Shown one piece after another: positions 320 to 53,959 of a stretch of DNA of 64,000 nt; within the stretch, counting starts at the first letter, position 1, and the number at the start of each line of letters is the position of its first letter. This DNA comes from Mobula hypostoma (lineage: Eukaryota). Below the pieces are notes generated by a model. The model was not told the DNA's origin. It saw nothing but the letters and a program-made list of their open reading frames with translations, and searched no databases. The translations under genes were made by a program, and so were the position numbers. The DNA lies in contig NC_086108.1 in assembly GCF_963921235.1 (NCBI RefSeq), positions 12,462,001 through 12,526,000 on the forward strand, read 5' to 3'.

Positions 320-835
320 CAAACACGAGCAAGTCTGCAGATGTTGGAAATCCAGAGCAACACACAAAATGCTGGAGGAACTCAGCAGGTCAGGCAGCAT
401 CTAAGAAAAAGAGTAAACAGTCAACATTTTGGGCCGAGACCCTTCCTCAGGACTGAGAAGAAAGGGGGAAGATGCCTGAGTATAAAGGTGGGGAGAAGAG
501 AAAGAGGTTATCTGGAAGGTGATAGGGGAAGCCAGTTGGGTGGGAAATGTAGAGGGCTGGAGAGGAAAGAATCTGATAGGAAAGGAAAGTGGACAATAGG
601 AGAAAGGGAAGAAGTGGGGCCTAGTGGAAAGTAATAGGCAGGTGAGAAGATGTGAAAAGTCAGAGTGGGGAATAGAAGAAGGGGGATGAGGGGATTTTTT
701 CACCAGAAGGAGAAATCGATATTCATGCCATCAGGTTGGAGTTTCCCCAGACAGAAGTATAAGGTGCTGATCATCCACCCTGCAAGTGGCCTCACCTTGG
801 CACAAGAGGAGGCCATGGACCAACATGTCGGAAGT
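320..835 (-). mobile_element. Penelope-like element (PLE) terminal/pseudo-LTR fragment with decayed hammerhead motif at ~418-455
   Basis: Shares the 'caacacacaaaatgctggaggaactcagcaggtcaggcagcatc...gggccgagacccttcctcaggactg' block and purine-rich tract with copies at 16630, 35310 and 47610; the last is contiguous with GIY-YIG coding remnants. Confidence 0.7.
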
Positions 836-4965: not shown

Positions 4966-5068
4966 CTTGAAAATTGAAAAGAGGAATAAAAACAAATATT
5001 AGTACAAATCCAGGTACTTAAAATATCATTCAGGCCCCCAATGAAGGGTAGCGTCCCAAAAACTTCAC

Positions 5069-5205
5069 ACAGTCCTGATGAAGGATCTCATCACAAAACA
5101 TCGACTGTTTATTCACTTCCATAGATGCTGCCTGGCCTGCTGAGTTCCTCCAGCATTTTTGTGGGTGATACTCTGGATTTCCAGCGTCTGCAGAATATTT
5201 TGTGT
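5069..5205 (+). mobile_element. Short PLE-terminus fragment with decayed hammerhead (cagtc CTGATGA aggatctcatcac AAAAC ATC gactg)
   Basis: Reverse complement of the 42059-42157 family; GAAAC/GTC core mutated. Confidence 0.65.
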
Positions 5206-5433
5206 TTATGATTTGTGGTAGAAATTTGGTGATGACTCTGAGCACCAACACTCATTAAACAATTCTAATCTCCACACCAGCTTTTCAAAAAAGGTGAAAA
5301 TCATCTGGAAATGCAGAGGTGTCAGGGCAATGTATTAAAGTATTCAGCACAGGGACCCACTCATCCAGTGTGGGAGAATCTTGGCGCAGGGCTCAGTTCA
5401 GGGATCCACTCATTCATTGTAAGTGGATTTCAC

Positions 5434-9608: not shown

Positions 9609-12290
9609 ATAGAAACATAGAAACATAGAAAATAGGTGCAGGAGTAGGCCATTCGGCCCTTCAAGCCTGCACCGCCATTTATTATGATCATGGCTGATCA
9701 TCCAACTCAGAACCCCGCCCCAACCTTCCCTCCATACCCCCTGACCCCCGTAGCCACAAGGGCCATATCTAACTCCCTCTTAAATATAGCCAATGAACTG
9801 GCCTCAACTGTTTCCTGTGGCAGAGAATTCCACAGATTCACCACTCTCTGTGTGAAGAAGTTTTTCCTAATCTCGGTCCTAAAAGGCTTCCACTCTATCC
9901 TCAAACTGTGGCCTCTCGTTCTGGACTTCCACAACATCGGGAACAATCTTCCTGCATGTAGCCTGTCCAATCCCTTTAGGATCTTATACGTTTCAATCAG
10001 ATCCCCCCTCAATCTTCTAAATTCCAACGAGTACAAGCCCAGTTCATCCAGTCTTTCTTCATATGAAAGTCCTGCCATCCCAGGAATCAATCCGGTGAAC
10101 CTTCTTTGTACTCCCTCTATGGCAAGGATGTCTTTCCTCAGATTAGGGGACCAAAACTGCACACAATACTCCAGGTGTGGTCTCACCAAGGCCTTGTACA
10201 ACTGCAGTAGTACCTCCCTGCTCCTGTACTCGAATCCTCTTGCTATAAATGCCAGCATACCATTCGCCTTTTTCACCGCCTGCTGTACCTGCATGCCCAC
10301 TTTCAATGACTGGTGTATAATGACACCCAGGTTTCATTGCACTTCCCCTTTTCCTAATCGGCCACCATTCAGATAATAATCTGTTTTCCTGTTTTTGCCA
10401 CCAAAGTGGATAACTTCACATTTATCCACATTAAATTGCATCTGCCATGAATTTGCCCACTCACCCAACCTATCCAAGTCACCCTGCATCCTCTTAGCAT
10501 CCTCCTCACGGCTAACACTGCCACCCAGCTTCGTGTCATCCGCAAACTTGGAGATGCTGCATTTAATTCCCTCATCCAAGTCATTAATATATATTGTAAA
10601 CAACTGGGGTCCCAGCACTGAGCCTTGCGGTACCCCACTGGTCACCGCCTGCCATTCTGAAAAGGTCCCGTTTATTCCCACTCTTTGCTTCCTGTCTGCT
10701 AACCAATTCTCCACCCACACCAATACCTTACCCCCAATACCGTGTGCTTTAAGTTTGCACACTAATCTCCTGTGTGGGACCTTGTCAATAGCCTTTTGAA
10801 AATCCAAATATACTACATCCACTGGTTCTCCCCTATCCACTCTACTAGTTACATCCTCAAAAAATTCTATGAGATTCGTCAGACATGATTTTCCTTTCAC
10901 AAATCCATGCTGACTTTGTCCGATCATTTCACTGCTTTCCAAATGTGCTGTTATCACATCCTTGATAACTGACTCCAGCAGTTTCCCCACCACCGACGTT
11001 AGGCTAACTGGTCTATAATTCCCCAGTTTCTCTCTCCCTCCTTTTTTAAAAAGTGGAGTTACATTAGCCACCCTCCAATCCTCAGGAACTAGTCCAGAAT
11101 CTAACGAGTTTTGAAAAATTATCACTAATGCATCCGCTATTTCTTGGGCTACTTCCTTAAGCACTCTAGGATGCAGACCATCTGGCCCTGGGGATTTATC
11201 CGCCTTCAATCCCTTCAATTTACCTAACACCACATCCCTACTAACATGTATTTCGCTCAGTTCCTCCATCTCACTGGACCCTCTGTCCCCTACTATTTCT
11301 GGAAGATTATTTATGTCCTCCTTAGTGAAGACAGAACCAAAGTAGTTATTCAATTGGTCTGCCATGTCCTTGCTCCCCATAATCAATTCACCTGTTTCTG
11401 TCTGCAGGGGACCTACATTTGTCTTTACCAGTCTTTTCCTTTTTACATATCTATAAAAGCTTTTACAGTCCATTTTTATGTTCCCTGCCAGTTTTCTCTC
11501 ATAATCTTTTTTCCCCTTCCTAATTAAGCACTTTGTCCTCCTCTGCTGAACTCTGAATTTCTCCCAGTCCTCAGGTGAGCCACTTTCTCTGGCTAATTTG
11601 TATGCTTCTTCTTTGGAATTGATACTATCCCTAATTTCTCTTGTCAGCCACGGGTGCACTACCTTCCTTGATTTATTCTTTTGCCAAACTGGGATGAACA
11701 ATTGTTGTAGTTCATCCATGCAACCTTTAAATGCTTGCCATTGCATATCCACCATCAATCCTTTAAGTGTCATTTGCCAGTCTATCTTAGCTAATTCACG
11801 TCTTATACCTTCAAAGTTACCCCTCTTTAAGTTCAGAACCTTTGTTTCTGAATTAACTATGTCACTCTCCATCTTAATGAAGAATTCCACCATATTATGG
11901 TCACTCTTACCCAAGGGGCCTCTCACGACAAGATTGCTAATTAACCCTCCTTATTGCTCAAAACCCAGTCCAGAATAGCCTGCTCTCTAGTTGGTTCCTC
12001 GACATGTTGGTTCAAAAAACCATCCCGCATACATTCCAAGAAATCCTCTTCCTCAGCACCTTTACCAATTTGGTTCACCCAATCTACATGTAGATTGAAG
12101 TCACCCATTATAACTGCTGTTCCTTTATTGCACACATTTCTAATTTCCTGTTTAATACCATCTCCGACCTCACTACTACTGTTAGGTGGCCTGTACACAA
12201 CTCCCACCAGCGTCTTCTGCCCCTTAGTGTTATGCAGCTCTACCCATATCGATTCCACATCTTCCCGGCTTATGTCCTTCCTTTCTATTC
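9609..12290 (-). mobile_element. Young 5'-truncated CR1 LINE; near-intact ORF2 (endonuclease C-terminal part + RT) broken by two frameshifts
   Basis: ORFs 11941-12258 (VYRPPN, IMGDFN), 10334-11926 (530 aa, GVPQGSVLGP, KFADDTKL) and 9707-10306; tail (ttctatgt)n at 9609-9630. Confidence 0.95.
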
Positions 12291-12369
12291 CTTACTATTT
12301 CTTAATTGGTGAGGACATCAAACGTTACAGGGTGAAGACAAGAAAATGGGGTTGAGAGGGGTAATAAAT

Positions 12370-15895: not shown

Positions 15896-16629
15896 TTCCA
15901 GCACAAATCAATACAGCAGAGGCACATCACACCTAACACAGGTAACGACTCCGGGACACGGTGAGGCATCTCTTTTGAACGCTTTCCCCCAGGATGAGGC
16001 TAAGGACCTCCAGGTCATGCTTTGCTGTCATTGCGGGTACAGAAGTCTAAAGGCACACGCTCAGCGATTCAGAAACAGCTCCTTCCCCTCGACAGTCCAA
16101 TTTCTGAATGGACAATGAGCACTACCTCACTATTTTTTTGTTTCTATTTTTGCACTACTTATTGAATTTAACTATGTATATATAATTACTGCAGTCGCAG
16201 CTTGTTCTCTCTATTATGCATTTGACTGTACTACAGCCACGAGCCAACAAATTGGATGCCATATGCCGGCGATATGAAGCTGATTCTGATTTTGAATCTG
16301 AAGGATTCTCTCCCATGTAAATGGTTCCTCCAGAAGCAGATCAGTTCATTTTACCTCGTCAAACCCCCAGCTCCAATGTAACATGGGAGTGCATTCATCA
16401 TTTGAAGTATGTTACCACAATGACTCAAAGGTTATGAATTCTTTGGGGTTAACTATGCCTCCAGGAAATCATTCATCAATCCCTTTGAAACTAGCTGCTG
16501 CTCTCTGCCTAGAGAACGATCTGAGACAGCAAGGTTTGATGAGACCTATAACATTTAAATTAGCTGACTCTCTAAGCACAAACTATATCATTGCAGAGTG
16601 CTGACTAGATTCATCATTTAATTTCAACA

Positions 16630-17075
16630 AAGTCTGAATATGCTGGAGATCCAGAGCAACACACATACCAAATGCTGGAGGAACTCAGCAAGCCAGGCAG
16701 CATCTATGGAGGGAAATAACCAGTCAACGTGTTGGGCCGAAACCCTCTTCAGGACTTCTTCTTCAAGGCGCCAGAATAGCTAAACTGGGGGAGGGGAAGG
16801 AGGCTGGCTAGATGCAGATAGGTGAAGGCAGGTCGGTGGGAAGAGTCAAGGGCTGGAGAAGAAGCAACCTGTGAGGAGAGGACAGTGGACCACAGGAGAA
16901 TGGGAAAGAGGAGCAGACCCAGGTGGAGGTGATAGACAGGTGAGAAGAGGTAAAAGGTCAGAGTGGGGAATAGAGGGGAAGAAGGAATTGATCATCATGC
17001 CATCAGTTTGGAGTCCACCCAGTCAGAATACAAGGTGCTGCTCCTCCACCCTGAGGGAAGCCTCATCTTGGCACA
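16630..17075 (-). mobile_element. PLE terminal fragment with decayed hammerhead (~16721-16756)
   Basis: Same family as 320-835. Confidence 0.7.
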
Positions 17076-17249
17076 ATCAAAATCAGATAGATGACGCAAT
17101 CGGCAATCGCCTCTGATCTGGGCCGACATTTACGTGCCGGGCGGCACCTAATTAATTAGCTTGTTTATTTCGGCTTTTTTTCTTAAAGATGTGCTGGGTG
17201 CATTCCGGCCACCGCTGTATTCTTCGCGGCCCGGAAGCTGGGGACCACT

Positions 17250-18826: not shown

Positions 18827-19379
18827 ACCATTTGCTGGCACATCCAACAATGCTTGTAACTCCAAGCATGTGAGTATATCTGTAAGACATTCTGTGAGAT
18901 GTGATAAACCGTTCAGTACTATCTGTGCCTTCACAGAATTACTTCGTATCTTATTTAATAACTTTTCTTATACACATCGATAAAGGTAAGCTCTTTAAAG
19001 TCTGCAACTTCAGTGTGGGATTGCAATCGAAATCACATCTTACTTGATGTCAAATATTATCACCTGGTTCCCAGAGGGACTCTATCTAGATTCTAAAGAT
19101 ATAATTTTGCTTGCTGTGACATATGGTATCAAATTGAAACTTGCACACTTAATACTGGTTAGAAGTAATGAAAATGTGAGTGGTGGAGATCACGACTGAA
19201 CTGAGGCAAGTGTGGAAACAAATCAAACAGCTCAAAGAGTTGGTTCAGAGAATGCTCACAATAAGACCAACATAAGTTGGCTGAAATCTCTTTATTAAAT
19301 GTTCAACAGGTCCAATTTTGGAAATTAATCAGGGGATCTAAAGGTTCAGAAGGCAAAAGAATTTCCAAAATGATCCTAC

Positions 19380-19700
19380 CACTAAACATATCTTTACTCC
19401 CCTCCTCCCTCTGCTTTCCATAAAGATCACTCCATCTACTAATCTCCCTCCTGCCCATTCACTTCCCTTCATTCCTTCCAGGTGAGCCTCGCGTCACCTG
19501 TGGACCTGCTGGGGTTAACTATTGTGTCCGGTACTCCTGATATGGCCTCCTCTTTATTGGTGAGAACCGTCGTAAATTGGAGGACCGCTTCGTCAAGCAC
19601 CTCCACACCATATGCAACAGGCGAGACTTCCTGGTGGCCAAAAATTTTAATTCTGATTCCCATTTCCATTCTGGCATGTCGGTCCATTGCCTCCTATGTG
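19380..19700 (+). mobile_element. Penelope-like GIY-YIG endonuclease remnant
   Basis: Translates YGLLFIGENRRKLEDRFVKHL...VAKNFNSDSHFHSGMSV (YIGET-like motif). Confidence 0.75.
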
Positions 19701-19804
19701 CAGCAGCTTTGTACTGTGGTGGACCTCTGACCATGGGTTTCTAGGATAGTCCTAGGAATGAGGATTACCAGTCGAAGGTTAGACCAGGGAACCTGAGGTA
19801 TTGA

Positions 19805-20301: not shown

Positions 20302-20669
20302 TCATGGGTCAGGAACTCACCGTAAAGGTCTATTGTACGTACATAACCTGTGTTAAAGGTTACGTACATGGCAGCGCCTCTACTTCCTGATGTGTTTCTA
20401 TTTGTTCCTGGTTCTGATGACATGCAACAATATGGAGCACTAACTTATTTTCATGTTCCACAGATCTACCTGACTGAATGCCTCCGGAACTTTGTTTATT
20501 GCAGACTTCTAATATCTGCAGACTTTTAACACACACAAAGGGTCTCAGCCCAAAAGGTCGACCATTTATTCATTTTCATAGCTGCTGCCTGACCTGCTGA
20601 GTTCCTCCAGCATCTTATGTGTGTTGCTTTGGATTTCCAGCATCGGCAGAATCTCTTGTGCTTATCAAC

Positions 20670-23145: not shown

Positions 23146-23327
23146 TCCATTTCATGGTTCAACGTGTTGTCGTATTGTGTATTCAGAGATGCTCTTCTGC
23201 ATACTACTGTTGTAATGTGCGGTCATAAGACCATAAGACTATAAAACCATAAGATGCAGGAACAGAATTAGGTATTCTCCACCATTCCACCATGGCTGAT
23301 TTATTATCTATCTCATAGAGTCAACGT

Positions 23328-23634
23328 GTTGGCGCATGGCCAAGTGGTTAAGGCGTCAGTCTAGTGATCTGAAGGTCGCTAGTTCAAGCCTCAGCTGAGG
23401 CAGGGTGTTGTGTCCTTGAGCAAGTCACTTTACCACACATTGCTCTGCGACGACACCAGTGCCAAGCTGTAACGGCCCTAGTGCCCTTCCCTTGGACAAC
23501 ATCGGCAGCACGGAGAGGGGAAACTTGCAGCATGGGTAACTGTCGGTCTTCCATACAACCTTGCCCAGGCCTGCTCCTTGGAAACCTTCCAAGGCGCAAA
23601 TCCATGGTCTCATGAGACTAACGGATGCCTATAA
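23328..23634 (+). mobile_element. tRNA-derived SINE with CORE-like centre and RTE-like tail
   Basis: A box TGGCCAAGTGG, B box-like AGTTCAAGCC, 'gtgtccttgagcaagtcactt', tail 'gagactaacggatgcctat'; second copy at 53630-53955 (minus). Confidence 0.8.
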
Positions 23635-25384
23635 AGAGTTACAGAAAAGTACAGCACAGACATAGGACCTTTGACTCACCTGGTCTGTGCTGAATGGTTT
23701 AAGCTGCCTAGTCCCATCGTCCTGCACTGGGACTATAGCCCTCCATGCCCCTACTAACCATTTACCTATCCAAACTTCTCTCAAACATTGAAACCAAGCT
23801 CACATGCACCACTTGCGCTGGCAGCTTGTTCCACACACTCACCTCCCTCTGAGTGAAGAAGATTTTCCTCAAGTTCCCCTCTTAACCCCATTCTTGAGAG
23901 ATTGAGCTGCCAAGAGTTTGCACTGGACAAAATATGGAGCTATTTTTGCGTTTTCTGTAAATATTGGCTTTTTTCTATTTTGTTATTTTCACTAATTTTT
24001 GTAATTTTGATTTTTGACACACCTAATAAATGCACTTGTACTATAGTGCGAAATGACTCCGGCCATTTTTTCTTCAGTCATAATGATATTCCTCAACAAT
24101 ATGTCCAAGGTGGAATTTCGACTCTCCCCCTGCCTCTCCTCTATCCTCGATCAAAGCTGACTTTCTCTGAACTACTTGGAAAGATAAGAAGTTGCAATGA
24201 GGTCTCCCTCTCTCTCATGAGATCTCCCAATGTCACCTGCGGTTTTGGGAGTAATGTTAGGTGGGCATGAATGAGTGAGGAGTGAGGAGAGGAGAGAAGG
24301 GGATAGCGATGAATTTGGAAATAATTCTCACATGTGGACGGCAGGGAATGGTTTAAGGGGAACAGAAGGATGAAGGTGATGAGTTGGGACCGAGTGTGAA
24401 AAGCCAAGAGTGAAGCAAGAGCAAAGACCCTTGTTCTCTGCTGTGAAGGTGTGACCACAGGGACAACACTGTGTTGGTTTTACTTCATGCTCTCCCTGAA
24501 GTTCCTGTTCCCATTGAGGATTTTTGGTCCAACAGGAACTTCCTCTCAGCCTCTGCACCAATCTGTACCAGGTTGGTTGCCCAAAGACCAAAGAGCTTAA
24601 CTTAGCATCGGCATCACCCTGAATAATGTTGTCTCTGCCACTCAGTCTGGTGGGGGCTTCAGCAGTCAAGGGCAGAGATTGTCTGGCCATGAGGAAAGGT
24701 AAGAGATGCAAAGTGTTCCTGTGTGGCCCCAACTCCAGCCTCTGTCCTCTTTCTCTGCCAGCATTCCTCTGCCCAATCTCACCACTGCATCTACTCCCTC
24801 CCTATGGCTTCTCGACAGCAGTGCACTTCCTTCTGGGTTCCACCACCCCACCACCCCACCACCCCGCCATTTCCACTCTCATTGTTAGAATTAAGACCAT
24901 AAGACATTGGAGCAGAATTAGGCCATTCAGCATTGAGTTTGCTCTGCTATGTAATCATGGCTGATCCATTTTCCTCTCAACCCCATTCTCCTGCCTTCTC
25001 CCTGTATTTAAACTGTCCAGATAGTGAGAACCTCTGTGACTGAACCTGATCTCAATTCCATCCAAATTCTGGCAGGTTTCTCTGGATACTAGGACCACAG
25101 AGGTAAGTCTGGGGAAACTGAGTGGACAGGATCCTGAGCTGCCAGTGTTCAACTGATGCCTCTCCACAAGGCAATCATAAATAAATAAATAAAACAATAG
25201 CACTGGAGACAGAACAATGAAGTCTCTCCTGGCTAAGTCCTGGGATGAGAAGATTGTCCTATCAAATAATTTAAATTGGTTGGGTCTGTTTACTTTAGTT
25301 TAGAACATTGATTAGTTTTGAGGCAATGATAGTGGAACAATTAATCTCTGTGTACCTTGTGTGGTCCCTGCCCTACAACAGTTC

Positions 25385-26550
25385 AGAGGGAGGCGCACTG
25401 CCATAGGGCAGTACAGAAGAAACTATGCATCTCTGTGCAAAGGGAGCCATGCACTGCCCCAGGACAGTTCAGAGGGAGCCGTGTATCTGTGTGTAGAGGG
25501 AACTGCACATTACCTCAGGGCAGTTCAGAGGGAGCCGTGTATCTGTGTGTAGAGGGAACTGCATATTACCTCAGGGCAGTGCAGAGGGAGCCGTGTATCT
25601 GTGTGTAGAGGGAACTGCACATTACCTCAGGGCAGTGCAGAGGGAGCCGTGTATCTGTGTGTAGAGGGAACTGCACATTACCTCAGGGCAGTGCAGAGGG
25701 AGCCGTGTATCTGTGTGTAGAGGGAACTGCACATTACCTCAGGGCAGTGCAGAGGGAGCCGTGTATCTGTGTGTAGAGGGAACTGCACATTACCTCAGGG
25801 CAGTGCAGAGGGAGCCGTGTATCTGTGTGTAGAGGGAACTGCACATTACCTCAGGGCAGTGCAGAGGGAGCCGTGTATCTGTGTGTAGAGGGAACTGCAC
25901 ATTACCTCAGGGCAGTGCAGAGGGAGCCGTGTATCTGTGTGTAGAGGGAACTGCACATTACCTCAGGGCAGTGCAGAGGGAGCCGTGTATCTGTGTGTAG
26001 AGGGAACTGCACATTACCTCAGGGCAGTGCAGAGGGAGCCGCGTATCTGTGTGTAGAGGGAACTGCACATTACCTCAGGGCAGTGCAGAGGGAGCCGTGT
26101 ATCTGTGTGTAGAGGGAACTGCACATTACCTCAGGGCAGTGCAGAGGGAGCCGTGTATCTGTGTGTAGAGGGAACTGCACATTACCTCAGGGCAGTGCAG
26201 AGGGAGCCGTGTATCTGTGTGTAGAGGGAACTGCACATTACCTCAGGGCAGTGCAGAGGGAGCCGTGTATCTGTGTGTAGAGGGAACTGCACATTACCTC
26301 AGGGCAGTGCAGAGGGAGCCGTGTATCTGTGTGTAGAGGGAACTGCACATTACCTCAGGGCAGTGCAGAGGGAGCCATGTATCTGTGTGTAGAGGGAACT
26401 GCACATTACCTCAGGGCAGTGCAGAGGGAGCCGTGTATCTGTGTGTAGAGGGAACTGCACATTACCTCAGGGCAGTGCAGAGGGAGCCGTGTATCTCTGT
26501 GCAGAGGGAACTGCTCTGCCTTAGGGCAGAACAGAAGGAGCCGTGTATCA
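25385..26550. repeat. 56-bp minisatellite, about 20 copies
   Basis: Unit agggagccgtgtatctgtgtgtagagggaactgcacattacctcagggcagtgcag; near-identical core, degenerate edges. Confidence 0.97.
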
Positions 26551-27681
26551 ATAATGCACCATGTCATGCAATTGCTGCTTGTTCTTGCTGTGGCTTTCCC
26601 AACACTTTCCATTGTTAAGACTTTTGGACCCTTGGGTCAGTTCCTTTTGTCTCTGAGAAAACAAATTTTGTTCATCTTCTTTCATTCGGAATTGCAGATT
26701 TTAATATTTAGTGTAATTGTCTCAGGAATCCTTTGATATTGTGACATTTCATTGTCACAGCTGCTCTCAGTGTTGAAGATTTTCCTGACGTCTCATTCTG
26801 AGCCTTCCATATCTCATCCCCCTTTGTAAAATAAACCATGTTGGAAGCTTAATGGAATGAAAATGAGTTTGGGTTTTTCTGACAAGCAAGTCTTCATTTT
26901 CATTCTCATGCATCTGTCTGTATTAAATATTGTTCTCTGTGGAGATATTTTAAAAGACTCTGCTGAATTCAGTCATCTGAGTCTTGATTTGCAGTCTCAC
27001 AGTCAGCCTCGGTGAGCATTGACATCTTGCTGCTCATTCTTGCTGCACAGAGTCAATTAGATTGTGCGGTGGTTGAGAAATTATCATTAACCATTATACT
27101 TCCATGCGAATGTGCAGCTCCGCTCCTCCACTTGAAATCTCTTCCCTTGTCACACAGCCCAAAGACTGTCCCATAAGGAAACAGAAGCATTCTGCACGAA
27201 GGAGCACCAGCTCATAATTTGCCCTACAACATGGAGTGGGTCCTGCTTACTCCAAGAGTCACAGAACCAGGAGTTAAGGAAGATGGGAAAAATTTTAGTG
27301 CTGCACCCTGAGTCAACAAATGACACGGTGCTAGATTGAACTGAACTGAGCTGAACCGAACATTCTTGCACTGTCTCGATGACTTTGTGGTTGATGTTTT
27401 ATATTCTGCATTTTTGCTCATTTTCAAGCAATTTGCGTGATTAGTTCTCTTTTTTTAAAGAGTTGAGAGCCTGATGTTTTTTCCCTTTGAACAGGTTCCA
27501 TGGTTTTCTTTGTTTCCTGGCTGTCTGTGGGAAGACAAATCTCAGGGTTGTATACTGCATGTATATTTCATTAAATAACTGACCTTTGAATATTTGAATC
27601 ATTTTTTTCTCCACTGCAGGGTGGCCTGAGAATAAAACAAAAACTGTATGATTTCTATTCCAAATCTGCTCAAGTTACTTA

Positions 27682-34180: not shown

Positions 34181-37153
34181 AGTACTCTGCAAAAGTCTTA
34201 GGGATATATATATAGCTAAGACTTTTGCACAGTACTGTAGTAATTTTATGTTTTACACTGTACTTGTTATATAGGGGCTGTGCACATTCCTGATTTGATG
34301 GAGATGGACGTGAGAAGCATGGAGGAACATCTGGAGAAACTTCTGAAATGCCTGGTTCGCTGCCGCTGCTACTGTGCAACGAGAATCTCTGGAGGGGAAG
34401 CCCCCAAATCCTCGGGTTTGCCTATTGCCTGTTTCCGGGACCGGGGTCAAAGCACTCGGCAGAGATGGTGCTCGGTGCTCAGTGTCGGAGGGCTGGTCGT
34501 AGGCTCAAAGTTTTCGGACGGACTCAGAGTCGAACTGCGGTCGGGTGTTTCCAGGATGCTGCATTGGCAAGTTTGCGGCACTGGAAGCTCATGGCAGGGA
34601 GACTTTTTCCCTTCAACTGTCTGGGTGAGGTGATGGGACTTTCGAGAGACTTTGAGATTTTTTTTTACTGTGCCCATGGTCTGTTCTTCATCAAACTACG
34701 GTTTTGCTTTGCACTTTTGTAACTATATGTTATAATTATGTGGTTTTTGTCAGTTTTTTAAAGTCTTGGTTTATCTTGTGTTTCTGTGATATCATTCTGG
34801 AGGAACAAATTGTATCATTTCTTAATGCATGCATTACTAAATGACAATAAAAGAGGACTGCGTGTCCTCATAATCTAATCTAATCTAATCTAATCTAATC
34901 CACTGCTGTTACAAAAAAATCATGACATTTGAGTGCTGATGAATCTGATTCTGATTTGAGTCACTATTGTAGACTAACAGTGGGAAGAGTGGGCAGGGAG
35001 AACAGAATCATAGTATGGAAAAAGGAAAGGGAGAGGACAGTGAGCTGGAAGCACCAGAGACATTCTGTAACGATCTATAAGCTAATTGTTTGGAATTAAA
35101 TGACCTTGCTTTGCGTCTAATGGCTAGGTGTGTCTGCACCCACATCACCTCCCCACCCCAATCTGCCCCTGACACTCCTTCTCTGTCACCTGTCCCACAC
35201 CTTTCAGGTGGCTCTCCACCCTTGTCATTCCCAACATTGTATGCTCTCGCCAGATTTGCAGACTCGCTCTCTGCTCCATGTTGACAAATAGAGTACCGTG
35301 CAAAAGTCAAAGCAACACACACAAAATGCTGGAGGAACTCAGCAGGTCAGGCAGCATCTATGGAAATGAATATACAGTCAATGGTTCAAGCCGAGACCGT
35401 TCTTCAGTACTGAGAAGGAAGGAGTTAGATGTTTGAACAAAAAGGTGGGAGGAGAGGTGGAAGGTGATAGGTGATGGGAAGGTGGGTGGGAAAAGCTGGA
35501 GAAGAAGGAATCTGATGAGAGGGGAGAGTGGGAAATGGGAGAAGGGGAAGGAGGAGAGACCCCAGAGGAAGTAATGGGCAGGTGAGAAGAAGTAAAAGGT
35601 CAGAGTGCAAAATAATGAAAGGAGGTGGAATTTGTTTACTGGAAGGATAAATCGGTATTGCCGCCAGGTTGGAGGGTACGTCGACAGAATATAAGAAGTT
35701 GCTCCTCCACCCTGAGGATGGCCTCACCGTGGCACAAAAGGAGGCCATGGACTGAAATGTCAGAGCGGGAATGGGAATGAGAATTAAAATGTCAGTTTAC
35801 CGGGAAGTCCTGCTTGTGGCAAATGGTGTGGAAATACTCGAGAAAGCTGGATCCACTGCAGTTTGCCTATCGTCACATTGGTCAACTGCAGAAGCAATCT
35901 CAATGGCTCTTCACACAGTCTTAAACCATCTGGACAACACAAACACCTATGTCAGGATGCTGTTCATTGACTATACCTCGGCATTTAACACCATCATTCA
36001 CACAATCCTGATTGGTAAGTTACAGAACCTGGGCCCCTGTACCTCCCACTGTAATTGGATCCTTGACTTCCTAAATGGAAGACCACAATCTGTGCAGATT
36101 GGTGATAACATCTCCTCCTCGCTGACGATCAACACTGGCACACATCAGGGGTGTGTGCTTAGCCCACTGCTCTACTCCCTCTATAGCCATGATTGTGTGG
36201 CTAGGCATAGCTCAAATATCATCTATAAATTTGCTGATGATACAACCATTGTTGGTAGAATCTCAGGTAGTGACGAGAGGGCGTACAGGAGTGAGATATA
36301 CCAACTAGTGGAGTGATGTCACAGCAACAACCTAGCACTCAATGTCAGTAAGATGAAAGAGCTGATTGTGGACTTCAGGAAGGGTAAGACAAAGGAACAC
36401 ATACCAATCCTCACAGAGGGATCAGAAGTGGAGAGAGCGAGCAGTTTTAAGTTCCTGGGCATCAAGATCTCTGAGGACCTAACCTAGTCCCAATGTAGCT
36501 ATAAAGGAGGCAAGACAATGACTATACTTCATTAGGAGTTTGAAGAGATTTGGTATGTCAACAAATACAATCAAAACCTTCTATAGATGTACCATGGAGA
36601 GCATTCTGACAGGCTGCACCACTGTCTGGTATGGAGGGGTGCAGAGGGGCTACTGCACAGGACTGAAAGAAGCTGCAGAGGGTCGTAAATTTAGTCCGTT
36701 CCATCTTGGGTACTAGCCTACAAAGTACCCATGGCACCTTCAAGGAGCAGTGTCTCAGAAAGGCAGCGTCCATTATTAAGAACCTCCAGCACCCAGGGCA
36801 TGCCCTTTTCTCACTGTCATCATCAGGTAGGAGGTACAGAAGCCTGAAGGCACACACTCAGTGATTCAGGAACAGCTTCTTCCCCTCTGCCATCCGATTC
36901 CTAAATGGGCATTGAACCCTTGGACACTACCTCACTTCTTTAATATATATTATTTCTGTTTTAGCACAATTTTAAATCTATTCAATATACATATAGTGTA
37001 GTTTATTTATTTATTTTCCCTCTTCTAGATTATGTATTGCATTGAACTGCTGCTGCTAAGTTAACAAATTTCACAACACATGCCAGTGATAAAAAACCTG
37101 ATTCTGATTCTGATTCTATCTATATGTGCCCGAGGCTTTTGCACAGTACTGTA
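34181..37153. mobile_element. Tc1-type composite element with hairpin ends, interrupted by a retroposon (~34265-34900), a PLE (35310-35845) and a Rex-type LINE (35853-37115)
   Basis: TIR motif 'gtactgtgcaaaagtcttag' in both orientations at 34183-34236, and split at 35291-35308 / 37125-37153; internal part recurs at 45240-45585. Confidence 0.55.
35853..37115 (+). mobile_element. Rex1/Babar-type LINE (RT to 3' end), (ctgatt)n tail
   Basis: '[17 protein letters not shown]...[17 protein letters not shown]...[10 protein letters not shown]'. Confidence 0.9.
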
Positions 37154-41530: not shown

Positions 41531-42058
41531 TTTACCTCACTCCACAATTAAATACCACCCGTCCACCATTATATACATTCACTCCATTATTCTACACCCT
41601 CACTCTATTATATACCCTCACTCCACCATATATACCCTCACTCCACCAATATATACTATCACTCCACCATTATATACCCTTCAGTACTATATACCCTCAC
41701 TCTGTCATTATAAGACCATCAGACCATAATATATAGGAGCAGAATTAGGCCATTCGGCCCATTGAGTCTGCTCCACCATTCCATGATGGCTGATCCATTT
41801 CCCTCTCAGTCCCAATCTCCTGCCTTTTCCCCGTATCCCTTCTTGCCCTGACTAATCAAGAATCTGTCAACCTCTGTCTTAAATAAACCCATCGACTTGC
41901 CTGCACAGCCACCTGTGGCAATGATTTCCACAAATTCACCACGTTCTGGCTGAAGAAATATTCTCCTCATCTCCGTTCTTAATGGACACTCCTCTGTTCT
42001 GAGGATATGACCTCTGGTCCCAGACACACCCATCATGGAAAACACCCTCTCCACATCC

Positions 42059-42157
42059 GAGCAACACACATCAAAGTTGCTGGTGAATGCAGCAGGCCAG
42101 GCAGCATCTCTAGGAAGAGGTACAGTCGACGTTTCAGGCCGAGACCCTTCGTCAGGA
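42059..42157 (-). mobile_element. 99-bp PLE-derived mini-insertion with 12-bp TSD CTCTCCACATCC
   Basis: TSD copies at 42047-42058 and 42158-42169; CR1 continuous across the insertion. Confidence 0.85.
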
Positions 42158-42159
42158 CT
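42124..42159 (-). ncRNA. Minimal type I hammerhead ribozyme motif (intact core)
   Basis: 5'-AGUC CUGACGA AGG GUCUCGG CCU GAAAC GUC GACU-3': stem I AGUC/GACU, CUGANGA, stem II AGG/CCU, GAAA, palindromic ACGU stem III, GUC cleavage triplet. Confidence 0.8.
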
Positions 42160-42568
42160 CTCCACATCCACTCTATCCAGGCCTTTCAACATTGAATCGC
42201 TTTCAATGGGATCCCCCTCATTCTTCTAAATTCCATTAAGTACAGGCCCAGAGCCGTCCAATGCTCCACATATGGTAACTCTTTCATTCCAGGGACCATT
42301 CTAATGAACCTCCTCTGACCTCACTCCTACGTCAGCAGATACAAGGGGCTCAAAACAGCTCACAATACTCCACGTGAGGCCTTGTCTGTGCTTCATAATG
42401 CCTCAACATTACTTCTTTGCTATTTTATTCTTGTCTTCTCGAAATGAATGCTAACATCATATTTGCTTTCCTCACCACCAACACAACCTGCAAATTAACC
42501 TTTAGGAAATCCTGTATGAGTAGTCCCAAGTTCCTTTGCACCTCAGGTTTTTGAAATTTTCTCTCCAC

Positions 42569-42772
42569 TTCAAAATTTGCTTTGTTGTTCCTTTTTGTGC
42601 CATGTGGCATTTTTTGATGTTTCCTCAGCATTTGTCTGTTTTTTACGAGGCCAGATAGCTAGCTTGATGCTCAACCCAGCACAGATGGAAAACGTGCAAG
42701 GGGCCGGTCGGATTCAAACCCGGGACCATTCGCCTAAAAGTCCATTGCTGATGCCACTACACCACCAGGCAG
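42569..42772 (-). mobile_element. tRNA-derived SINE
   Basis: A box TGGTGTAGTGG and B box GGTTTGAATCC on the minus strand; inserted in CR1. Confidence 0.75.
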
Positions 42773-45919: not shown

Positions 45920-46040
45920 TCCCGATGCAGGGTGTCGACTTGAAATGTTGACCATTCCTTTCCCCCACCCCATATTCCCCCACGGATGTTGCCAATCCTC
46001 CAGCAGTTTGCTTTTCAGTGTTTGCAGACTCTTGCATCTC
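45920..46040 (+). mobile_element. PLE-terminus fragment of a second subfamily with decayed hammerhead
   Basis: 'cccgatgcagggtgtcgacttgaaatgttgac...ctccagcagtttg'. Confidence 0.45.
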
Positions 46041-46995: not shown

Positions 46996-47609
46996 TTTAA
47001 GCAAGCCGTCATTGAATCAATGAATATCAAAACATGTTAGAAATCTGAGGCAAAGCCACGGCAGCACGGTAGTGTTTTCAGTACCAGCGATCCGGGTTCA
47101 GTTCCCACTGCTGCCTATAAGGAGTCTGTACGTTCTCCCTGTAACCGCGTGGATTTCCTCCAGGTGCTCCTGTTTCCTCCCACAGTCCAAAGATGTTCCG
47201 GTTGGTAGGTTAATTGGTCATTGTAAATTGTCCTGAGATTTGGCTAGGATTAAATCGGCCGTTTGGTATGTCAGATCCTTCATGTTTGGTTGGAATGTCA
47301 CTCCCTGGGACAGCAGCAATGAGCACAATCTGGTCGTCCATCTCTTCATGAACTGTGCATTTGTGAAGAAAGGATGTGGGGTCCTTAATGAGATTCATCC
47401 TGTGCACCTGCTCTCCGGTCTACAGCTGTTCCCGGGGACTCACAGAGAAGGACATTACGTGCTGTTGGAAGATCACCAAATGGTGAAAGTTGCTCTATGA
47501 CCTGTCTGAAATTTTTTTTGGTCTTCGAGCACATCAAGATGTCTGTAAAGGAACACTGCCAGCTGGCATATATGGGCTGTTGGAGTACATCTTAAACATG
47601 GGAGGTCCT

Positions 47610-48685
47610 ACAGACACTGGAAATCCAGAGCAACACACACACAATGCTGGAGGAAGTCAGCAGGTCAAGCAGCATTTATGGAAATTAATAAACAGTTGGC
47701 GTTTAGGATCAATATCCTTGTTCATGCCTGGAAAAGAAGGGGGAAAATGCCAGAATAAATAGGTGGGGGGGAGGGCAAAGAGGTAAGCTAGAAGGTGTTA
47801 GATAAAGGTGGAGGATAGGGAAAGGCTAAGGACTGGAGAGGAAAGTGGACCATGGGAGAAAGGGATAGAGGAGGGGACCCAGGAGGAGGTGATAGGCAGG
47901 TAAGAAGAGGTAAGAGACTAAATGGAGAATGGCGGGGGGGACATATTTTTACCGGAAGGAGAAATCGATATTCATGCCATCAGGTAGGAGGCTACCCAGA
48001 CAGAATATAAGGTGTTGCTCCTCCACCATTATGGTGGCCTCATCTTGTTACGAGTGGAGGCCAAGGACTGACATGTCGGAATGGGAATGGGAATCGGGAT
48101 TAAACTGCTTGGCCAGCGAGAAGACCCGCTTTTGGGAAATGGAGAGGAGGTGCTCAACGAAGCAGCCCCCCAATTTATGATGGGTCTCACCAGTGTAGAA
48201 GAGGACACTTTGGGAGCACCAGACATAATAGGGGACCCCAGCACATTCGCGGATGAAGCGTTGCCTCATCTGGAAGGACTGTTAGGGCCCTTAATGGAGG
48301 AGAGGGAGAAGGTGAATGGGCAGGTGTAGCATTTTGGCCACTTGCAGGAATAAGTATCAGGACGAAGATTACTGGGGAGGGATGAATGGACAAGGGAATC
48401 ATGGAGGGAGTGATTCCTGTGGGAAGTGGAGAGAAAGGGGAAGATAAAGATATGTTTGGTTGTACGATCCCTTTAGAGATGGCGGAGGTTGCAGAGGATG
48501 ATAGGGGTGGTAGGTGAGGACAAGAGGAACTCCATCATTGTTAAAGCAGCGAGAAAATGGGGTGAGTGTGGATGTTCAGAAAATGGAGGAGATGCGAGTG
48601 AAGACAGCATCAATAGTGGAGAGAGGGAAACCTCATTCTTTGAAGAAGGAGTACATCTCTGATGTCGTGGAAAGGAAAGCTGGGG
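47610..48685 (-). mobile_element. Penelope-like element: GIY-YIG region plus terminal repeat
   Basis: 'VPYYVWCSQSVLFYTGETHHKLGGCFVEHL...LAKQFNPDSHSHSDMSVLGL'. Confidence 0.8.
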
Positions 48686-48878
48686 ACAGATGCAAGAGTT
48701 CATGCTGAGGGAATCTCAAAAGCTCAGTACAGCCACAACAGAAACTATAGAGAAAGACTAGTCCAGGGTACTGCTTCCCCTGGTCTCTAAAGAGCTGGTC
48801 CCAGTGAAAGACTCTCAAGACTCATGATTTGTGCCCCAAAGAGACCACCGGAGTGGCAATGGTGCTAATACTGTAGAT

Positions 48879-53629: not shown

Positions 53630-53955
53630 TACAATAAATAAATAAAGGCATTTGTTAGCCTTGCAAGACCATGGATCTGCACCTGGAAAGTCTTCACTCT
53701 CCAGGGCACAGGCCTGGGCAAGGTTGTATGGAAGACCAGAAGTTGCCCATGCTGCAAGTCTCCCCTCTCCACGACACCAATGTTGTCCAAGGGAAGGGCA
53801 TTAGGACCCATACAGCTTGGCACCAGTGTCGTCGCAGAGCGCTGTGTGATTAAGTGCCTTGCTCAAGGACACAACATGTTCCCTCAGCTGGGGCTTGAAC
53901 TCACGACCTTCAGGTAGCTAGTCCAATGCCTTAACCACTTGACCACGTGCCCACA
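53630..53955 (-). mobile_element. tRNA-derived SINE (copy of the 23328 family)
   Basis: Collinear reverse complement, with (ttta)n tail. Confidence 0.8.
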
Positions 53956-53959
53956 CAAG

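Follow-up and report, generated by a model that had tools for sequence, protein, structure and literature searches.

A 99-bp hammerhead-bearing insert in a dead LINE, best explained as the truncated end of a Penelope-like element

The 99-bp insert at 42059-42157 of the stretch analysed here (64,000 nt, referred to as the window) is very probably the 5′-truncated, tail-less 3′ end of a Penelope-like element (PLE), bearing a minimal hammerhead ribozyme motif (min-HHR) and lodged in a dead LINE. As the best explanation of its sequence, it would have been copied from the element's own RNA, the element being a young, very high-copy, endonuclease-bearing PLE of Neptune type, to judge from the linker of its older relatives.

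Table 1. Coordinates of the insert, its motif, its target and the related copies in the window
Feature	Position	Strand	Remarks
Older copy with tail	321..833	-	478 nt without tail
Older short copy with tail	5037..5209	+	Stops at 5071, the 5′ edge of helix I, with a second, degenerate hammerhead-like unit ahead of it (5037-5068)
Older copy	16625..17078	-	424 nt without tail; a minor local rearrangement directly precedes helix I
Older short copy with tail	20538..20665	+	5′ end within the motif, at the start of helix II
Older copy, tail-less	35311..35868	-	558 nt; extends to the end of the GIY-YIG region
Host LINE of the CR1 group, a dead fragment with the 3′ end and the C-terminal part of ORF2	41710..42570 (ends approximate)	-	
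Target-site duplication, left copy (LINE sequence)	42047..42058	+	Identical 12-mers
Insert: probable 3′-terminal PLE segment, 5′-truncated at the ribozyme 5′ edge, without the optional tail of about 30 nt	42059..42157	-	
PLE terminal segment downstream of the ribozyme, up to the tail-less 3′ end	42059..42123	-	Loose contig ends before 42060-42063
Minimal type I hammerhead motif	42124..42159	-	4-bp helix I; an additional A (42148); helix II at 42147-42136
Target-site duplication, right copy	42158..42169	+	42158-42159 form the 2-nt microhomology
Weak divergent short copy	45921..46008	+	43-54 % identical to others; nhmmer E 0.00024; starts at the motif 5′ edge
Older copy with PLE body	47608..48728	-	Tail, decayed hammerhead, pyrimidine-rich 3′ UTR, degenerate GIY-YIG endonuclease (stop 47949-47951), CX4CX2C linker

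Insert, target site and hammerhead motif

The insert is enclosed by identical 12-mers whose neighbouring letters differ on both sides, making extension of the repeat impossible; with offsets of ±5 allowed at both ends, the chance of such a 12-bp repeat is about 1e-5. When the flanks were joined and compared with the other LINE copies in the window, eight of the nine non-self matches crossed the junction insert-free, and a target resembling the 12-mer was present once in all six of the matches displayed. A preliminary description made from the letters alone had reported a clean 99-bp insertion into CR1 with a perfect 12-bp target-site duplication (TSD), and these results bear it out. The host sequence is the C-terminal part of an ORF2 on the minus strand, frames upstream of it matching RVT_1 and Exo_endo_phos_2; from the 3′ end of the LINE we take it to be CR1 instead of L2. 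The best-kept LINE in the window, also of the CR1 group, lies at 9707-12291 on the minus strand with its ORF2 nearly open in three frames. The gain of 111 bp leaves a frame open across the dead LINE ORF (41806-42225), which was taken as chance.

The AG at 42159-42158, the first two letters of the motif, is compatible with both the target and the element, so that the unit measures 99-101 bp and the TSD 10-12 bp. Related contigs match the window to 42159 and diverge at 42160, which supports a 2-nt microhomology at the 5′ junction, as had been suggested earlier. At the priming end, the last four target letters before the insert (42055-42059) are similar to the start of the tail of the older family, and slight microhomology is possible there too.

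Read on the minus strand, the motif comprises the 5′ arm of helix I (42159-42156), CUGACGA (42155-42149), GAAA (42135-42132), C42131-G42130, U42129 and C42128, followed by the predicted cut between 42128 and 42127 and by the 3′ arm of helix I (42127-42124). The core CUGANGA/GAAA/NUH is present in type I order, and the length of helix I falls within the 4-5 bp used as the min-HHR criterion. Helix III is represented by the palindrome ACGU alone (42132-42129; palindromic 15.2-16.2), no stable helix III being present. Strand, type, cut position and the palindromic stem III were all as first described. A min-HHR descriptor matched once in the window, at this motif, and not at all in 100 simulated windows of 64 kb with matching dinucleotide composition, whilst Rfam gave no hammerhead match in the window at the gathering score and none at E≤10. 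The motif accounts for 36-37 of the 99-101 nt, about a third of the insert, and the remaining 65 nt are PLE terminal segment; the earlier view of a unit consisting of little more than the ribozyme was therefore not upheld.

For helix II, the register that has four pairs and leaves an additional A behind A9 was predicted to be more stable than the alternative (-6.7 versus -5.3 kcal/mol). The available parts of Cervera and De la Pena (2014, PMC4209133) list among the traits of min-HHRs an additional nucleotide following A9 as well as a G10.1-C11.1 pair that is highly conserved. The closing pair of this better-supported register is G10.1-U11.1 in the present copy, and C occupies position 11.1 in five of the six older copies found in the window. 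Across seven copies, the dinucleotide at the 11.1 site is CA in four, TG in two (the 42059-42157 copy included) and TA in one, which has the pattern of a decayed CpG. Changes of the G10.1-U11.1 type lower ribozyme activity; a literature search on the rate effect of this one gave nothing usable. The hammerhead had been called intact, a description that the G-U at the conserved pair makes doubtful for this copy. Retention of CpGs and a young age had also been claimed: retention is incomplete, four of the five CpG sites in the motif being kept and one, at 11.1, lost, but older copies keep only one or two, and on this evidence the copy is younger than its neighbours.

In the predicted minimum free energy fold of the monomer, the G5-G8 region of the core pairs with ACGU, in competition with the hammerhead fold (-10.7 versus -6.7 kcal/mol). 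A lone min-HHR did not cleave in vitro and dimers cleaved weakly, according to the portion of PMC4209133 available. Given that there is no partner within 3.8 kb, that the competing fold is predicted and that the closing pair is G-U, inertness is expected, and the copy would most likely be an inert relic, a lone, promoter-less monomer lacking a true helix III.

Related copies and the parent element

Six older copies, 66-75 % identical to the 42059-42157 copy, and one weak copy were found in the window. Measured from the tail-less end, the older copies are 91, 102, 424, 478, 558 and 1100 nt long and the weak copy 88 nt. Five of the six older copies have a 3′ extension of about 30 nt, which the sixth lacks, giving two kinds of 3′ end, and this extension matches the optional 30-40-bp tail at the 3′ end of PLEs (PMC11167929, as available). 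Four of the six extend 320-1000 nt past the motif and have that sequence in common, including a pyrimidine-rich stretch upstream of the motif, with the longest two reaching the GIY-YIG endonuclease region; the heavily truncated PLE end that had been offered as an alternative reading is thereby supported. Attachment to PLE bodies at varied lengths was found for four of the seven other copies; a random continuum of lengths, as foreseen for simple truncation, was not, the remaining three copies (88-102 nt, tail excluded) confirming that short units recur. The short older copies are 76-88 % identical to the long older copies, 82 % to each other and 70-71 % to the 42059-42157 copy, and since they are closer to the long copies than to that copy, the short form appears to have arisen more than once. 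This comparison rests on pairwise identities, as none of the five inner branches in a tree of the eight copies was supported. No convincing TSD was found for the seven other copies, two 7-mers being likely due to chance. The nearest other copy lies 3.8 kb from the insert on the opposite strand and the nearest on the same strand 5.5 kb away.

Two of the older copies show local peculiarities. At 16757-16770, upstream of helix I, the pyrimidine tract is swapped for a short purine stretch, resembling a local inversion with deletion. At 5037-5110 on the plus strand, a degenerate hammerhead-like unit stands directly before the 5071 motif, in head-to-tail order, the period being about 34 nt; among 5000 random tiles, 15 scored as well as the pair, which is roughly what the real copies would contribute, and a decayed ribozyme pair is possible. 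Elsewhere in the window, a tandem array of about 23 units with a period of 56 nt occupies 25281-26588, and inverted repeat copies at 23326-23582 and 53700-53956 (83 % alike), the head of which matches the Rfam tRNA model at 23335-23397, are probably a tRNA-derived SINE.

The longest copy, translated with X at seven stops, had 284 protein relatives at E≤0.001, those named at the top being from stingray, skate and whale shark, which makes a cartilaginous fish the probable source of the window. Fourteen of the 284 were scanned: 11 had a GIY-YIG match at E≤0.01, mostly below the Pfam cut-off, and five (609-924 aa) had RVT_1 followed by a C-terminal GIY-YIG. Searching the window with three relatives by tblastn placed the endonuclease at 47958-48281, with CX4CX2C just upstream, and recovered the same region in the 558-nt copy. 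A CX2-5CXXC linker is described for Neptune and Nematis and not for Penelope and Poseidon in the available text of PMC8557442, so the CX4CX2C that precedes the endonuclease of the copy at 47.6-48.7 kb indicates that the older relatives belong to an endonuclease-bearing PLE of Neptune or Nematis type. Pfam searches of the degenerate PLE pieces themselves returned no family and a word-indexed protein search no match, and no full-length PLE copy is present in the window. The link between the insert and a coding PLE runs through the older copies at 66-75 % identity, the body of its own subfamily being represented by the first letters of loose contig ends (consensus agreement 0.42-0.46). A PLE endonuclease fragment without terminal repeat lies at 19361-19702 on the plus strand. 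Several ray and skate gene models (annotated as mucin-2, a RecQ5 isoform and uncharacterized) also end in this PLE endonuclease, and are presumably exonised or mis-annotated repeats.

Contigs from four of 23 public sequencing runs were compared with 41800-42700. In run X1, the summed depth over the unit, which is not a copy number, was 24-27 times that of the highest LINE bin, and the young subfamily is a very abundant repeat, found under three organism labels. Loose ends, which are mixed consensus strings with an agreement of about 0.4-0.5, were taken from the 24 of 1251 rows listed and give indirect evidence, were seen behind 42159 in 148, 108, 88 and 31 contigs of the four runs. These were short (median 14-63) and opened with common letters, AACTGAA in two runs and GACTGAA and AACAGAA in the others, as would be expected where copies run on into a repeated body. 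Loose ends before 42060-42063 kept a few letters of the tail and were long in the two closest runs, X1 and X5 (median 255), as would be expected of unique flanks near the 3′ end of the family. The letter at 42059 deviates from the loose-end consensus of the young family. Contigs at least 92 % alike gave six listed variable sites, at all of which the 42059-42157 copy has the majority letter, the largest minority in X1 being 22 %; differences within the unit were listed solely for 42100-42130, a range outside which 42136 falls. Joints from 42158-42159 to 42123, 42128, 42111 or 42091-42092, with 1-5 letters between, were seen in two runs. In X15, which we guess to be RNA although none of the runs is recorded as such, the summed depth was lower in the ribozyme bin than in the 3′ bin (ratio 0.59; 42079-42140), and in the other three runs it was higher (1.16-1.25), although contig depth cannot rank gene parts. 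Exact pattern scans gave no match in viral or metagenome contigs, collections that need not contain host DNA, so that this result carries no weight.

Insertion mechanism and rival explanations

The enzymatic steps that we infer would begin with a minimal hammerhead of putative activity, the motif of which is present in the sequence, within the terminal repeat of the PLE RNA. The GIY-YIG endonuclease would nick the plus strand after 42058 inside the dead LINE, as the TSD suggests, and reverse transcription would begin at an internal position of the RNA, some 70 nt beyond the cut site in the downstream direction, using the one of two start zones that omits the tail. The latter follows the analogy of the anole Poseidon PAc, the sole purified PLE, for which the available parts of Frangieh et al. 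(2024, PMC11167929) describe internal starts of reverse transcription on the RNA at two sites that lie slightly downstream of the hammerhead and whose spacing corresponds to the tail; the template there is mainly uncleaved RNA, and ribozyme mutants insert normally. The reverse transcriptase would then read through the uncleaved ribozyme, stop at its 5′ edge and probably join the target through the 2-nt microhomology. The insert contains the sequence to either side of the cut site in colinear order, and the 5′ junction is visible. A nick in the second strand and fill-in would yield the TSD, those of rotifer PLE insertions being 8-10 bp with microhomology joins in the parts available of PMC3846280, and one CpG would have been lost later, at C11.1. 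Single dispersed min-HHRs in genomes have likewise been attributed to truncated PLEs (PMC4209133). The target, which is not AT-rich, speaks against the truncated-end reading, as the anole enzyme prefers an ATT target (PMC11167929).

Ribozyme cleavage made neither end of the insert. Derivation of the ends from a cleavage product or circle copied into cDNA would be favoured by the presence of the motif and by one short-gap X5 joint from 42159 to the cut site at 42128, among the joints listed; it is at odds with where the ends of this copy lie, the cut site being 30 nt inside the insert with no permutation around it, and is scarcely credible. Capture of PLE cDNA or DNA as filler during break repair, or an assembly artefact, might account for the base composition of the target and the microhomology at the 5′ junction, and none of the public-run contigs listed spans the whole insert. 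Yet the duplication of 12 bp is exact, no target was lost, and the 3′ end falls within the usual end zone of the family. Moreover, a 172-nt X1 contig matches 41913-42084 across the left junction with no differences, although just 26 of its letters lie inside the insert, short of the 31-letter rule, and X1 may itself be the source of the window sequence. Among the X5 contigs listed, which are 97 % alike on the LINE flank (42224-42380 and 42351-42466), none crosses a junction, and no empty allele (joint 42058 to 42170) occurs among the 15 of 121 joints listed. Repair or artefact is very improbable. A little weight falls on the family favoured in the preliminary description, discrete, non-autonomous, SINE-like or retrozyme-like units of 100-140 bp with their own transcript, moved in trans by PLE enzymes. 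The clean TSD, the recurrence of short units (four of the eight copies in the window), the high summed depth in X1, the degenerate head-to-tail pair, and reports of non-autonomous PLE derivatives and pLTR trans-mobilisation in the literature, as far as it was available, would suit such a family. It is nevertheless improbable, as the ends vary by copy and the short copies in the window do not form one lineage, the young subfamily being represented there by one copy. Identity as a retrozyme or a SINE was rejected, the unit being single instead of tandem, ending away from the cut site and having, in either orientation, no Pol III A box or B box when compared with the consensus at 1-2 mismatches.

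A further proposal is compatible with the preferred reading of a truncated PLE end and would refine it. The three short copies, the weak 45921 copy included, stop within about 10 nt of the ribozyme 5′ edge; under a rough exponential truncation model, P was 0.005-0.05 for two of six, for a cluster chosen post hoc. Truncation could therefore be non-random, with the reverse transcriptase stalling or running off at this edge (at a folded or protein-bound structure, at the RNA 5′ end or at a splice junction at helix I) and PLE subfamilies repeatedly shedding hammerhead-plus-tail pieces of about 90-135 nt in cis, a proposal that may be entertained but is more probably wrong than right. In its favour, helix I is the start of the 42059-42157, 5071 and weak 45921 copies, the 20538 copy starts about 10 nt inside the motif and the 16649 copy is rearranged at the same edge, and joints from 42158-42159 to 42123, the outer ends of helix I, make up three of the 12 rows listed. 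In the parts available of these sources, product length tracks the RNA 5′ end in vitro (PMC11167929) and the 5′ end of helix I is where an intron of Drosophila virilis Penelope has its 3′ end (PMC4209133). On the other hand, there are only seven copies, detection was biased to those bearing the motif, and the loose ends behind 42159 are short, whereas a dominant class of unique flanks would give long ones. A splice acceptor at the edge is possible, with 17-19 pyrimidines per 20 nt before its AG in three long copies, but this appearance is not specific because the 3′ UTR is 79-81 % pyrimidine throughout and 12 other AGs score 15-18 of 20. All in all, a truncation hot spot at the ribozyme edge is a tentative proposal. 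It is unlikely, too, that the folded min-HHR, or an RNA end or splice junction at its edge, acts as a programmed stop for the PLE reverse transcriptase, which would mass-shed a ribozyme-plus-tail cassette of that size, helix I complementarity leading to fold-backs and head-to-tail pairs as the birth step of retrozymes. If true, the minimal hammerhead would be a structural boundary with a role independent of cleavage.

Comparison with known systems

SINEs can share their 3′ end with a partner LINE and are short, flanked by TSDs and of high copy number. The insert resembles such elements in all these respects, its 3′ end being that of an autonomous element, but differs from them in having no Pol III head and no fixed 5′ end and in not belonging to one lineage of short copies. 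With the animal non-LTR retrozymes it shares a non-coding sequence, a type I hammerhead and derivation from PLE terminal repeats, and solo monomers have been described (Cervera and De la Pena, 2020, PMC7229834; Li et al., bioRxiv 10.64898/2026.07.22.740005, both as available). Retrozymes, mostly of 150-450 bp (51-972 bp according to the preprint by Li et al.), are however tandem units that each contain a hammerhead and are cleaved and closed into circles at the ribozyme, whereas the present insert is a single colinear PLE end.

The closest likeness is to the min-HHRs that metazoan PLEs, the fish elements Xena, Poseidon and Neptune among them, carry in their pseudo-LTRs; in the available parts of PMC4209133 these min-HHRs are of type I with a 4-bp helix I and no true helix III, palindromic at 15.2-16.2, with an extra nucleotide between 9 and 10.1, and mostly single dispersed motifs. 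Unlike them, the present motif has a short helix II of 4 bp that contains G-U pairs and is closed by one. Cartilaginous fish were not found by a term search in one of the two supplementary files of that paper, and the literature search found no paper devoted to min-HHR motifs in this group; one chondrichthyan is included in the 2026 retrozyme survey (bioRxiv 10.64898/2026.07.22.740005), in the part available. The anole Poseidon PAc, as far as described in the accessible text of PMC11167929, is alike in having its 3′ end slightly downstream of the hammerhead, two kinds of 3′ end and a ribozyme that is copied uncleaved; it differs from the present family, known from sequence alone, whose relatives have the CX2-5CXXC linker and whose target is not AT-rich.

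The insert is thus best explained as an already published kind of relic, a truncated PLE end with a min-HHR, and not as a new mobile family. Its contribution to this kind is a PLE family, young and very abundant, that has a min-HHR and occurs in what is probably the genome of a ray. A genome with very many TSD-flanked copies provides material for counting 5′ ends relative to the cut site and the ribozyme edge, and so bears on the reason for which PLEs retain a ribozyme that is hardly active and was dispensable for insertion in vitro (PMC11167929, in the part available).
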